Positions 24,556-46,110 of a DNA stretch of 64,000 bases are shown here, one piece after another. Each line of letters starts with the position of its first letter. Position 1 is the first letter of the stretch. The translations under genes and the position numbers were made by a program. Source of the DNA: Escherichia coli. Its GTDB lineage: Bacteria > Pseudomonadota > Gammaproteobacteria > Enterobacterales > Enterobacteriaceae. The notes under the pieces were generated by a model. The model ran no database searches, had not been told where the DNA came from, and was given only the letters and a program-made list of their open reading frames with translations. The DNA lies in assembly GCF_003018255.1 (NCBI RefSeq), contig NZ_CP027440.1; one strand, written 5' to 3'.

Positions 24556-26064
<1,509 letters not shown>

Positions 26065-26099
26065 GGGACTTAGCCTGCGGCGGTTTTGTTTGGCTTCAG

Positions 26100-26345
26100 C
26101 AGCGGGTTGCGCTCCCTTAATGTGCCTCGCCATATAAATTGAATGGTGCAGGGAGCGCGCAGGGGGCGGCCAATCGCCGCCGCCCCCTGCACCCCCGGGC
26201 TCTGGCGAACAAAATCGCCGCTGCGCGGTACCTTCAGCTTATCCCCTTCGGCTACCGGGTCGGGCGCGAGGTAACGTCCTGTAAGACGCGCCCTCAGCCC
26301 ACATCCATGTGGGCTGCCCCGGCCTTCGGGGAACGCTTCAGCGAT
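26100..26345. repeat. GC-rich element with nested dyad symmetries (box C/RSA-like intergenic repeat or structured 3' UTR)
   Basis: gcgctccct...agggagcgc; perfect 12-bp inverted repeat gcagggggcggc / gccgccccctgc; cccacat/atgtggg; ccccggccttcgggg hairpin; no credible ORF. Confidence 0.5.
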
Positions 26346-26652
26346 TTTGACGCCACCAACACCCGAGCTGTTATTATGTTCCGGGCAAAAAGTTAGATTT
26401 GATAATCGCGGATGGACGAAATTGCTTGATACACCCGCTTATCAGTTTTACATGGAAGCTCTGATGCATTGAGTCTGGACAGTTTTGTCGGCTGGATAAG
26501 GCATTTACGCGGCATCTGGCAAGAACACATGGCTCGTTGTAAACAATCCCATCTTTGTACCTGGAATAATCGTTTATATCCCCTGGCATTACCTTTCTTT
26601 GTTTACATTCCAACATCATTTTATAAACATTCTGCTTGTATTTTTCTTTACC

Positions 26653-26671
26653 GTAATGATAATCGCTATCA
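26653..26671. promoter_or_regulatory. Fur box upstream of efeU
   Basis: gtaatgataatcgctatca matches GATAATGATAATCATTATC at 14 of 16 core positions, about 60 bp upstream of efeU. Confidence 0.7.
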
Positions 26672-26729
26672 CTGCGATTTACTTTTCTTTGCATAGATTG
26701 ACTCAGAAAAACGTTTAAGGGTGGGTGGC

Positions 26730-27560
26730 ATGTTTGTTCCGTTTCTCATTATGTTGCGCGAAGGACTTGAAGCCGCGCTGATTGTCAGTTTGATTGCCAG
26801 CTATCTTAAGCGTACCCAGCGAGGCCGATGGATTGGTGTGATGTGGATTGGCGTGCTGTTTGCCGCTGCGTTGTGCCTGGGCTTGGGTATCTTCATTAAC
26901 GAAACCACCGGCGAATTTCCGCAAAAAGAACAGGAACTGTTTGAAGGTATCGTGGCGGTGATCGCCGTGGTGATCCTTACCTGGATGGTTTTCTGGATGC
27001 GCAAAGTGTCGCGCAACGTCAAAGTGCAACTGGAACAGGCAGTCGATAGCGCATTGCAGCGTGGAAATCATCATGGCTGGGCGCTGGTGATGATGGTCTT
27101 TTTTGCCGTTGCAAGGGAAGGGCTGGAGTCGGTCTTTTTCCTGCTGGCGGCGTTTCAACAAGATGTCGGGATCTGGCCGCCGCTGGGTGCAATGCTCGGT
27201 CTTGCTACAGCCGTGGTGCTCGGCTTCCTGCTCTACTGGGGCGGTATTCGCCTCAATCTTGGTGCATTTTTTAAATGGACCAGCCTGTTTATTCTCTTCG
27301 TCGCCGCAGGGCTGGCGGCTGGTGCCATTCGCGCATTTCATGAAGCCGGATTGTGGAACCACTTTCAGGAAATCGCCTTCGATATGAGTGCGGTGCTCTC
27401 AACTCACTCGCTGTTTGGCACGCTGATGGAAGGGGTTTTTGGCTATCAGGAAGCGCCGAGCGTCAGCGAAGTCGCCGTCTGGTTTATTTATCTCATCCCG
27501 GCGCTGGTGGCATTTGCTCTGCCACCACGCGCAGGGGCGACAGCGTCTCGCTCCGCGTAA
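26730..27560 (+). CDS. efeU: ferrous iron permease EfeU (276 aa, FTR1/OFeT family), apparently intact
   Basis: Continuous ORF (track 26721..27560, ATG at 26730 MFVPFLIMLREGLE) containing both REGLE motifs; no frameshift visible. Confidence 0.88.
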   Translation: MFVPFLIMLREGLEAALIVSLIASYLKRTQRGRWIGVMWIGVLFAAALCLGLGIFINETTGEFPQKEQELFEGIVAVIAVVILTWMVFWMRKVSRNVKVQLEQAVDSALQRGNHHGWALVMMVFFAVAREGLESVFFLLAAFQQDVGIWPPLGAMLGLATAVVLGFLLYWGGIRLNLGAFFKWTSLFILFVAAGLAAGAIRAFHEAGLWNHFQEIAFDMSAVLSTHSLFGTLMEGVFGYQEAPSVSEVAVWFIYLIPALVAFALPPRAGATASRSA

Positions 27561-27617
27561 CAAATACGACGCAAACTCTTGCTTAGTTACAACATACTTT
27601 AAAGGGATAGTCTCGTC

Positions 27618-28745
27618 ATGACCATTAACTTCCGCCGTAACGCATTGCAGTTTAGCGTGGCTGCGCTGTTCTCTTCTGCTTTTATGGCTAACGCCGCTGA
27701 TATTCCGCAGGTCAAAGTCACTGTGACAGATAAACAGTGCGAACCGATGACCATTACGGTTAACGCCGGGAAAACACAGTTCATTATTCAGAACCACAGC
27801 CAGAAGGCGCTGGAGTGGGAGATCCTCAAAGGCGTGATGGTGGTGGAAGAGCGGGAAAATATCGCCCCTGGTTTTAGCCAGAAAATGACGGCGAATTTAC
27901 AGCCTGGCGAATACGATATGACCTGCGGTCTGCTGACTAACCCGAAAGGGAAGTTGATCGTCAAAGGTGAGGCAACGGCGGATGCGGCGCAAAGTGATGC
28001 GCTGTTAAGTCTTGGTGGTGCAATTACTGCATATAAAGCGTATGTCATGGCGGAAACCACACAGCTGGTGACCGACACCAAAGCCTTTACCGACGCGATT
28101 AAAGCAGGCGATATCGAAAAAGCGAAAGCACTGTATGCGCCGACGCGCCAGCACTATGAGCGCATTGAACCGATTGCTGAACTGTTCTCCGATCTGGATG
28201 GCAGCATTGACGCCCGTGAAGATGATTACGAGCAAAAAGCCGCCGATCCGAAATTCACCGGTTTCCACCGTCTGGAAAAAGCATTGTTTGGCGATAACAC
28301 CACCAAAGGGATGGATAAGTATGCCGACCAGCTTTATACCGATGTGATCGATTTGCAAAAACGCATCAGTGAACTGGCTTTCCCTCCTTCAAAAGTGGTC
28401 GGCGGTGCAGCCGGACTGATTGAGGAAGTGGCGGCCAGCAAAATCAGCGGTGAAGAAGATCGCTACAGCCACACCGATCTGTGGGATTTCCAGGCTAACG
28501 TTGAAGGCTCGCAGAAAATTGTCGATCTGCTGCGTCCACAACTACAAAAAGTGAATCCGGAACTGTTGGCAAAAGTCGATGCCAACTTCATAAAGGTCGA
28601 TACCATTCTGGCGAAATACCGTACTAAAGACGGTTTTGAAAATTACGACAAACTGACCGATGCTGACCGGAATGCACTGAAAGGACCGATTACTGCGCTG
28701 GCGGAAGATCTGGCGCAACTTCGCGGTGTGCTGGGGCTGGACTAA
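27618..28745 (+). CDS. efeO: periplasmic iron uptake component EfeO (375 aa, cupredoxin + M75 peptidase-like)
   Basis: 375-aa ORF with signal peptide [26 protein letters not shown]. Confidence 0.93.
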
Positions 28746-28750
28746 GCGTT

Positions 28751-30022
28751 ATGCAGTATGAAGATGAAAACGGCGTGAATGAACCGTCACGCCGACGTTT
28801 ACTGAAAGGGATTGGTGCGCTGGCGCTGGCGGGAAGTTGTCCGGTCGCTCATGCACAAAAAACGCAAAGTGCGCCGGGTACGCTTTCACCGGATGCACGC
28901 AATGAGAAACAGCCGTTTTATGGTGAGCATCAGGCAGGGATCCTGACGCCACAACAGGCTGCAATGATGCTGGTGGCGTTTGATGTGCTTGCCAGCGATA
29001 AAGCCGATCTTGAACGGTTGTTTCGCTTGTTGACTCAGCGTTTTGCTTTTCTGACTCAGGGCGGAGCGGCACCAGAAACGCCAAATCCGCGCCTGCCACC
29101 ACTCGATTCCGGCATTCTTGGCGGCTACATTGCGCCCGATAATCTCACCATAACGTTATCGGTGGGCCACTCATTGTTTGATGAGCGCTTTGGCCTTGCG
29201 CCACAGATGCCGAAAAAGTTGCAGAAGATGACGCGTTTCCCCAACGACTCGCTGGATGCGGCGTTATGTCATGGTGATGTGTTGCTACAAATTTGCGCCA
29301 ACACCCAGGACACGGTGATCCATGCGCTGCGCGATATCATCAAACACACGCCGGATTTGCTCAGCGTGCGCTGGAAGCGGGAAGGGTTTATTTCCGACCA
29401 CGCGGCGCGTAGTAAAGGTAAAGAGACACCGATTAATTTGCTGGGTTTCAAAGACGGCACTGCCAATCCCGATAGCCAGAATGCGAAGTTGATGCAAAAA
29501 GTGGTGTGGGTGACGGCAGATCAGCAGGAGCCTGCGTGGACAATCGGTGGTAGCTACCAGGCGGTGCGGTTGATTCAGTTTCGGGTGGAATTTTGGGACA
29601 GAACGCCGCTGAAAGAACAGCAGACGATATTTGGGCGTGATAAGCAAACCGGCGCGCCGCTGGGAATGCAGCATGAGCATGATGTGCCTGATTACGCCAG
29701 CGATCCGGAGGGGAAGGTGATCGCGCTGGACAGCCATATCCGGCTGGCGAATCCCCGCACGCCAGAGAGTGAGTCAAGTCTGATGCTGCGTCGTGGCTAC
29801 AGTTATTCGTTGGGCGTCACCAATTCCGGGCAACTCGATATGGGGCTACTGTTTGTCTGCTACCAACACGATCTGGAAAAGGGCTTCCTGACAGTACAAA
29901 AAAGGTTGAATGGAGAGGCGCTGGAGGAATATGTCAAACCTATCGGTGGCGGCTATTTCTTTGCGCTGCCGGGTGTGAAGGACGCGAACGATTATCTCGG
30001 AAGCGCATTATTGCGGGTTTAA
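28751..30022 (+). CDS. efeB: Dyp-type peroxidase / deferrochelatase EfeB (423 aa, Tat substrate)
   Basis: 423-aa ORF with twin-arginine signal [16 protein letters not shown]. Confidence 0.93.
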
Positions 30023-30028
30023 TGTTTT

Positions 30029-30157
30029 TAGGCGGATAAGGCGTTTACGCCGCACCAGGCGTTCGTGCGCTGATGCGACGCTTGCGCGTCTTATCATGCC
30101 TACAATCGGTGCGGGTTCGGTAGGCCGGATAAGGCGTTCACGCCGCATCCGGCAAGC
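30029..30157. repeat. REP/BIME cluster (three REP units) downstream of efeB
   Basis: ggcggataaggcgtttacgccgcaccaggc ... gatgcgacgcttgcgcgtcttatcatgcctac ... taggccggataaggcgttcacgccgcatccggca. Confidence 0.85.
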
Positions 30158-30205
30158 TTTTACCAGTACTGCGAATCCTGCTGAAAGCACACAGCTTTTT
30201 TATCA

Positions 30206-30223
30206 CTGTCATCACTTTGTCAT
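30206..30223 (+). promoter_or_regulatory. Pho box (PhoB binding site) in the phoH promoter
   Basis: CTGTCAT-cact-TTGTCAT direct repeats with 4-bp spacer. Confidence 0.75.
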
Positions 30224-30647
30224 CTTTCCAGTAGAAACTAATGTCACTGAAATGGTGTTTTATGGTTAAATATAAGTGAATATATTGTTGCAATGAATGC
30301 GAGATCTGGTGTAATTATTAAGTAGCAGCGGAAGTTCCCGGCAGTGATAGTCAGTCACTATGGAGATCGCGGATGGTAACGTCCTGTACTGGACAATGTT
30401 TTGTTAAGCAAGGCTCCACCACTCGCGGAGATTTCTCCTCCGGTAGCAACTTCGTCACTCTGTATTTTTCTCACTTCCTCTCTTTACTCGTGTTACCGAC
30501 GCCGCAAACGGTGTGCGTAGCCGTTTTTCGGCATTTTATCCAAAAGCAAACTATGGCTTACAAGGAAGCCAACCCTCTGATGTTCGTGCGCATAATCGCG
30601 CTGCCAACGGCGCGTGTGATGAATACAAACAACTCAAGGTGCTCTCC

Positions 30648-31436
30648 ATGGGAAGACAAAAAGCAGTGATCAAAGCTCGTCGCGAGGCAAAACGTGTGCT
30701 GAGACGGGATTCGCGCAGCCATAAGCAGCGTGAAGAAGAATCGGTCACCTCGCTTGTGCAAATGAGCGGCGTAGAAGCCATTGGTATGGCCCGCGATAGT
30801 CGCGATACCTCGCCCATCCTCGCGCGAAATGAAGCGCAATTGCACTATCTGAAGGCTATTGAGAGTAAGCAGCTGATATTCGCCACGGGCGAAGCCGGGT
30901 GCGGAAAAACCTGGATCAGCGCAGCAAAAGCGGCAGAGGCCCTGATACATAAGGATGTCGACAGGATTATCGTCACCCGTCCAGTTCTGCAAGCCGATGA
31001 AGATCTTGGCTTCTTACCTGGTGATATCGCAGAAAAGTTTGCTCCCTATTTTCGCCCGGTCTACGACGTGCTGGTTCGGCGCTTAGGGGCTTCCTTTATG
31101 CAGTACTGCCTGCGACCGGAAATAGGGAAGGTGGAAATTGCGCCGTTCGCCTATATGCGTGGACGTACCTTTGAAAATGCAGTCGTCATTCTTGACGAGG
31201 CGCAGAATGTGACTGCCGCGCAAATGAAAATGTTTTTAACCCGCCTCGGGGAGAACGTGACGGTTATCGTCAACGGTGATATCACGCAATGCGATTTGCC
31301 TCGCGGCGTGCGCTCCGGATTAAGTGACGCGCTGGAACGTTTCGAAGAAGATGAAATGGTCGGGATCGTCCGATTCGGTAAAGAGAATTGCGTACGTTCG
31401 GCACTTTGCCAACGTACGCTACATGCATACAGTTAA
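30648..31436 (+). CDS. phoH: phosphate-starvation-inducible ATPase PhoH (262-aa form)
   Basis: ATG at 30648 (MGRQKAVIKARREAKR); Walker A GEAGCGKT; the same frame is open upstream (track ORF from 30513), consistent with a longer isoform. Confidence 0.85.
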   Translation: MGRQKAVIKARREAKRVLRRDSRSHKQREEESVTSLVQMSGVEAIGMARDSRDTSPILARNEAQLHYLKAIESKQLIFATGEAGCGKTWISAAKAAEALIHKDVDRIIVTRPVLQADEDLGFLPGDIAEKFAPYFRPVYDVLVRRLGASFMQYCLRPEIGKVEIAPFAYMRGRTFENAVVILDEAQNVTAAQMKMFLTRLGENVTVIVNGDITQCDLPRGVRSGLSDALERFEEDEMVGIVRFGKENCVRSALCQRTLHAYS

Positions 31437-39726: not shown

Positions 39727-39814
39727 TGGCGGTGAGGGGGGGATTCGAACCCCCGATACGTTGCCGTATACACACTTTCCAGGCGTGCTCCTTCAGCCAC
39801 TCGGACACCTCACC
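39727..39814 (-). tRNA. serX: tRNA-Ser (anticodon GGA), 88 nt with long variable arm
   Basis: Minus strand reads GGTGAGGTGTCCGAGTGGCTGAAGGAGCACGCCTGGAAAGTGTGTATACGGCAACGTATCGGGGGTTCGAATCCCCCCCTCACCGCCA; 7-bp acceptor stem, GGA anticodon, CCA end. Confidence 0.93.
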
Positions 39815-45357: not shown

Positions 45358-46110
45358 GATGAAACCCCGCTTTTTTTATTGATCGCACACCTGACAGCTG
45401 CCTCTAAAATAGAAGCACCAGAAGTACTGACAGATGTTGCACTGCTGTGTGTAGTAATAAATCAGCCCTAAATGGGTAAAATATAAAACTAATGGATTAC
45501 ATCTGATTTCAATCTAGCCATTACAAATCTTAAATCAAGTGTTAAACATGTAACTAAATGTAACTCGTTATATTAAAATGTTAATCTTAAGGTTTTATTA
45601 AGTTTAGAAATGATAGAAAAGTTGTACATTTGGTTTTTATTGCACAATTTTAAAAAATCATACAAATGGTGCTAACTTACTAATAATGCATATAAAAAAT
45701 ATTTCGGTGTAGTCCTTTCGTCATGTAAAACGTTCTTGTTTTTTCTCCACACCTCCGTGGACAATTTTTTACTGCAAAAAGACGAGGTTTGTCACGGCTT
45801 GTGCGCAAGACATATCGCAGCAATCAGCGACGGGCAAGAAGAATGATTGTCTGGTGATTTTTGATAGCGGAAAACGGAGATTTAAAAGAAAACAAAATAT
45901 TTTTTGCGTAGATAACAGCGTATTTACGTGAGTTTTAATACTTTGGTATGAACAAAAAAAGAAAAATACAACGCGCGGGTGAGTTATTAAAAATATTTCC
46001 GCAGACATACTTTCCATCGTAACGCAGCGTTAACAAAATACAGGTTGCGTTAACAACCAAGTTGAAATGATTTAATTTCTTAAATGTACGACCAGGTCCA
46101 GGGTGACAAC
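45358..46110. promoter_or_regulatory. 753-bp divergent csgD / csgBAC regulatory region
   Basis: Long AT-rich ORF-free intergenic region between divergently oriented csgD and csgB. Confidence 0.85.

Follow-up and report, generated by a model that had tools for sequence, protein, structure and literature searches.

The two REXXE motifs of iron permeases of the Ftr1/OFeT family are its hallmark and are thought to line the iron path. The yeast representative of this family (PF03239) pairs the permease Ftr1p with a multicopper oxidase, Fet3p, so that iron uptake is coupled to oxidation. In E. coli, the OFeT family member EfeU has 276 aa and seven transmembrane segments (PMC9174327), and this Ftr1-like permease is accompanied by the periplasmic EfeO and the haem-containing, Tat-exported EfeB (PMC7549933, PMC2808357, PMC4746246, PMC9174327), the precise roles of the latter two still being debated (PMC4746246, PMC9174327). 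Iron transport by the EfeUOB (YcdNOB) systems of O157:H7 and Nissle 1917, the proteins of which are nearly identical to those described below, is reported according to PMC7549933, PMC2808357 and PMC4746246. For K-12, accounts in PMC2808357 and PMC7549933 state that a frameshift leaves the system non-functional and that growth under iron restriction is better with an in-frame operon; this efeU defect is textbook knowledge and was first described in 2006-2007 (Grosse 2006; Cao 2007, both via PMC2808357 and PMC7549933).

We analysed a stretch of 64 kb of E. coli DNA (referred to as the window throughout), and the region between putP and phoH is, with high confidence, an ordinary and unbroken efeUOB (ycdNOB) operon of the E. 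coli chromosome, predicted to serve Fur-controlled uptake of ferrous iron (Table 1). The efeU reading frame comprises 831 nt (276 aa plus stop) without any internal stop codon, from the ATG at 26730 to the TAA at 27558-27560, the coding part without stop being 26730-27557. An in-frame GTG at 26721, which would extend the protein by three residues to 279 aa, was considered as the start and rejected in favour of the ATG, because RefSeq uses this same ATG in two strains (2017.09.02CC and O157:H7) and because AAGGGTGG is located 5 nt upstream of it. Comparison with family profiles led to scores above the respective cut-offs for the NCBIfam equivalog NF041756 (330.1 bits; cut-off 255), TIGR00145 (349.7 bits; cut-off 303.8) and Pfam FTR1 (PF03239; 300.7 bits; cut-off 25.3), the last one covering residues 1-275 and thus the protein from end to end. 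A Kyte-Doolittle scan over 19 residues gave six segments with a hydropathy of at least 1.6 (1-24, 32-60, 68-94, 146-173, 177-204 and 242-266) and a seventh, REGLE-bearing one at approximately 118-142 with a peak of 1.59. By this crude method EfeU would have seven transmembrane segments, in agreement with the number given in PMC9174327, and both REGLE motifs are found inside hydrophobic stretches, namely aa 1-24 and approximately aa 118-142. The first-pass annotation of this DNA had described efeU as one continuous frame of 276 aa with both REGLE motifs, which is borne out by the reading frame, the motif positions and the profile scores. An identical protein is already present in NCBI and UniRef under the name E. 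coli EfeU (66 contigs), and no chain related to EfeU was found in a sequence search of the PDB at E <= 0.001.

Table 1. Positions of the efeUOB genes and of associated sites in the window, with the basis of each assignment.
Feature	Position	Strand	Basis
Fur-box-like operator CGTAATGATAATCGCTATC	26652..26670	+	15/19 match to consensus GATAATGATAATCATTATC
CpxR-box-like site GCAAAGAAAAGTAAA	26678..26692	-	pattern scan; 1 mismatch to GTAAA-N5-GTAAA
Shine-Dalgarno-like AAGGGTGG, 5' of efeU ATG	26717..26724	+	sequence read
efeU, 276-aa Ftr1-type inner-membrane iron permease, intact	26730..27560	+	ORF and family profiles
First REGLE (REXXE) motif, aa 10-14, hydrophobic segment 1	26757..26771	+	sequence read
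GG doublet in codon 36 (GGT, Gly) of efeU; one G absent in K-12 (frameshift site)	26835..26836	+	alignment
Second REGLE (REXXE) motif, aa 129-133, hydrophobic segment 4	27114..27128	+	sequence read
efeO, periplasmic cupredoxin-like and M75 (imelysin) protein, 375 aa	27618..28745	+	NCBIfam, Pfam, PDB
efeB, DyP-type haem peroxidase/deferrochelatase, 423 aa	28751..30022	+	TIGR01412, Pfam, PDB

The same annotation had described efeU of K-12 MG1655 as a frameshifted pseudogene and had proposed an alignment to locate the lesion. RefSeq indeed lists the MG1655 gene as a pseudogene of 830 nt marked "frameshifted", and when the alignment was performed with the window, K-12 and strain 2017.09.02CC, the sole indel was one G missing in K-12, which reads GATT-GTGTG at this site, with GATTGGTGTG in both other sequences. 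The frameshift could thus be placed at the GG doublet of codon 36, and the frame of the window is unbroken across it. The frame-0 product of the K-12 gene ends after 36 aa (MFVPF...RGRWIV); when the G is put back, a protein of 276 aa results that differs from EfeU of the window only by L44F and I236V. Across 1.3 kb of DNA, MG1655 is otherwise 98.2% identical to the window and shares promoter, Fur box, efeO and efeB with it, but the K-12 operon is cryptic because one G has been lost in codon 36 of efeU, and the window carries the intact allele.

The frequency of both alleles was determined among 5,426 complete E. coli genomes by megablast (28-nt seed) with probes of 40 and 41 nt that had the lesion site in their middle; as any 28-nt seed has to span this site, each probe finds its own allele only. 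The 1.3-kb region of efeU was matched in 5,417 of these genomes. The K-12 deletion was detected in 367 of the 5,426 (6.8%), the undeleted sequence of the window in 3,928, and an undeleted one-SNP variant, for which the probe was taken from the O25:H1 strain CU39ES-1, in 1,024, leading to at least 4,952 genomes (at least 91%) with an undeleted efeU, while approximately 2% were assigned to none of the three alleles probed. Deletion carriers among the matches listed by name were mostly MG1655, W3110, DH10B, MC4100, TOP10, XL1-Blue and other laboratory strains, in addition to a small number of isolates, some of them O16:H48, whose genomes have the size of K-12. The frameshift is a peculiarity of the K-12 lineage, its carriers being essentially K-12 derivatives, and the intact gene is the ancestral, species-typical state. 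The earlier statement that a functional efeU is seen in many pathogenic and commensal isolates was right about the wide distribution of the allele but understated it, as an allele found in at least 91% of the 5,426 genomes is the norm of the species. With such a frequency the strain is unremarkable at efeU; its gene is confirmed as intact and had been read correctly, and the allele is common, already known and annotated, with nothing new about it.

EfeU is followed by the two expected partner proteins, both of full length, the second with a twin-arginine signal, as the first-pass annotation had proposed in naming efeO and a Tat-dependent efeB downstream. EfeO covers positions 1-375 of a 375-position profile and was assigned by NCBIfam NF007697 (767 bits) and NF041757 (478 bits), with the Pfam domains Cupredoxin_1 and Peptidase_M75; it starts with a signal peptide and carries an HRLE motif (HxxE) at aa 217. 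It is a near-perfect match to the solved E. coli structure PDB 7WGU EfeO (E = 8.5e-227), and an identical protein deposited as E. coli is already known under that name in NCBI and UniRef (65 contigs). EfeB reached 617 bits with the equivalog TIGR01412 'tat_substr_1' (cut-off 428) and contains the Pfam domains Dyp_perox_N and Dyp_perox_C. EfeU, EfeO and EfeB thus all score above the curated cut-offs of their families and match the profiles over their full length. Its twin-arginine signal is SRRRLLK (aa 13-19), and aa 13-37 fit the pattern of Tat substrates, in which S/T-R-R-x-F-L-K precedes a hydrophobic stretch and an AxA cleavage site. Near-perfect matches to the E. coli structures PDB 2Y4F and 3O72 (YcdB) begin at residue ~33-36 of EfeB, where the PDB chains start, consistent with a cleaved signal. 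All three genes have the same orientation and are closely spaced, efeO (cupredoxin plus M75) starting after a gap of 57 nt behind efeU and efeB (DyP peroxidase) after one of 5 nt behind efeO, and the gene order putA-putP-efeUOB-phoH-pgaDCBA is collinear with other E. coli chromosomes at 97.8-99.6% identity. Directly 3' of the efeB stop codon, within 30030-30160, two REP-like elements were observed (…GGCGGATAAGGCGTTTACGCCGCA… and …GGCCGGATAAGGCGTTCACGCCGCATCCGGCA…). These we take to be REP sequences, which would probably serve as the 3' end or as a stabiliser of the operon transcript.

With O157:H7 and Nissle 1917 the window shares gene order, gene lengths and the chromosomal place between putP and phoH. 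The proteins differ from those of O157:H7 in 2 of 276 residues for EfeU, 7 of 375 for EfeO and 4 of 423 for EfeB, the exchanges in EfeU (L44F and I236V) being conservative, hydrophobic and outside the REGLE motifs. We would be most surprised if these two exchanges, together with L12F, V29I and V244I in EfeO and a 124-bp repeat in the putP-efeU spacer, measurably changed expression or substrate handling compared to O157:H7 or Nissle. The likeness to yeast Ftr1p-Fet3p consists in the full-length FTR1 match and the two REXXE motifs in hydrophobic segments, to which oxidation-coupled iron uptake may be added for the system of the window by analogy. The partners differ, a multicopper oxidase in yeast corresponding to a cupredoxin/M75 protein and a DyP peroxidase at a bacterial inner membrane.

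The spacer between putP and efeU (window 26065-26640) is strongly polymorphic, measuring 665 nt in the window, 542 nt in K-12, only 219 nt in an O25:H1 strain and ~2.7 kb in O157:H7, where it holds an additional hypothetical gene of 1,344 nt on the opposite strand. In its place the window has a copy of the 124-bp repeat, and no functional difference is implied by this. The repeat is a G+C-rich segment at 26189-26312 that is absent from K-12 MG1655 and present in 2017.09.02CC. It is dispersed at low copy number: E. coli genomes contain it at a median of 2 sites and at no more than 5, none of them in annotated DNA. A copy of at least 95% identity is present in about half of the genomes, and the others have only copies of ~93.6% elsewhere. 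A REP-like palindrome, GGCTGGATAAGGCATTTACGCGGCATCTGGCAAG, was also observed in the spacer at ~26490-26525.

Downstream of this variable part, a Fur-box-like site lies 60-78 nt upstream of the efeU ATG. CGTAATGATAATCGCTATC is the best Fur match and the only site with at least 15/19 on either strand of the 64-kb window, compared to ~0.15 sites of this quality expected by chance in 64 kb according to first-order Markov simulations. As a 7-1-7 Fur core, TGATAATcGCTATCA (26657-26671) agrees at 12 of 14 specified positions, with two mismatches. The first-pass annotation, whose region began at 26653 and thus one base inside the box, had spoken of a near-consensus Fur box; a candidate site is present and well placed, but the term is somewhat generous for a match of 15/19. 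From the Fur box to the ATG, 79 nt are shared without any difference by K-12, O157:H7, an O25:H1 strain, a pork isolate and 2017.09.02CC, while the 30 nt immediately 5' of the box show several SNPs among the same five strains. In CFT073, efeUOB is one of the core-genome operons under direct control by Fur, and 34 of 35 such operons are also under Fur control in MG1655 (PMC7157518). From these reports Fe2+-Fur would be expected to repress transcription at the operator found here. The CpxR-box-like pair of Table 1, located 3' of the Fur box and ahead of the efeU start codon, is a short motif match that may be compatible with control by CpxAR. Cao et al. 2007, as cited in PMC4746246, mention regulation by CpxAR in their title, and both acid induction and CpxAR control of efeUOB are ascribed to that work in secondary citations; for the window, acid response and CpxR control would follow from this literature. 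A strict consensus scan of 26050-30600 gave no sigma-70 promoter and only weak terminator-like hairpins; under relaxed settings one weak candidate, ATGATA-16-TTTACT (4/6 + 4/6), was detected that overlaps the Fur box.

From the components encoded, EfeU, EfeO and EfeB would jointly take up ferrous iron. EfeU would be a seven-segment Ftr1/OFeT permease of the inner membrane with REXXE motifs in segments 1 and 4, EfeO its periplasmic cupredoxin plus M75 partner and EfeB a DyP haem peroxidase exported by the Tat pathway. By the most likely route, in analogy with Fet3p-Ftr1p, Fe2+ would be oxidised in the periplasm and passed on to EfeU as Fe3+. The intact operon could also have its main role in the extraction of iron from haem, with EfeB as deferrochelatase and EfeU importing the released iron. 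NCBIfam and the PDB depositors name EfeB 'deferrochelatase/peroxidase', and release of iron from haem with the tetrapyrrole ring left intact is attributed to Letoffe et al. 2009 in the summary of PMC9174327. As uptake of Fe2+ is what PMC7549933 and PMC4746246 ascribe to the system in O157:H7 and Nissle, we regard haem as the main substrate as rather unlikely; both roles are not mutually exclusive, and the sequence does not discriminate between them.

The two amino-acid differences from EfeU of O157:H7 and the presence of the 124-bp segment that K-12 lacks might suggest that efeU is inactive or silent here, through lineage-specific L44F and I236V or through altered upstream sequence. This seems very improbable, as both exchanges are conservative and spare the REGLE motifs, the same protein is found on 66 public contigs, the 124-bp segment ends over 340 nt before the Fur box is reached, and from this box to the ATG the 79 nt are the same as in K-12, O157:H7 and a strain with the B2-type allele. 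Single-base homopolymer indels are common sequencing errors, and the intact frame could then be an artefact of sequencing or assembly at a short G run with a K-12-type deletion as the real allele. The chance of this is vanishingly small, since the run is merely GG, the same GG occurs in at least 4,952 complete genomes and the window is also unlike K-12 elsewhere, with many SNPs in the 1.3 kb compared to MG1655 (98.2% identity).

Judged by its genes, the strain would very probably possess a working EfeUOB route for ferrous iron at low pH, like most natural E. coli, and K-12 is the exception at efeU. The main gain is a correct annotation; as K-12 is exceptional at this gene, models of iron uptake based on K-12 omit a system that is present in wild strains. 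Over a larger part of the window, the 24 kb from 20000 to 44000 were matched at 99.6% in only two of the 5,426 complete E. coli genomes, the human isolates JNE23-011 and JNE112863, the next-best genome showing 97.9%, which indicates that, at least for this part of the chromosome, complete genomes of the lineage are scarce. A Shigella origin was considered in view of best identities of only 97.8-99.6% to E. coli genomes and was rejected, as identical EfeU and EfeO proteins are deposited as E. coli and the two genomes that match the 24 kb at 99.6% are E. coli. Beyond the operon, a match to the Rfam family Ysr251, a Yersinia antisense sRNA, was detected at 31238-31431 (-) with 190.8 bits (gathering score 100), antisense to the 3' end of phoH. 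Other Rfam matches above the gathering score were found at 9007-9186 (-), 45413-45504 (-), 55598-55640 (-) and 39730-39814 (-), and these four regions are listed as two tandem naRNA4 (CssrE) copies, ES056 sRNA, ES036 (CssrF) sRNA and one tRNA.
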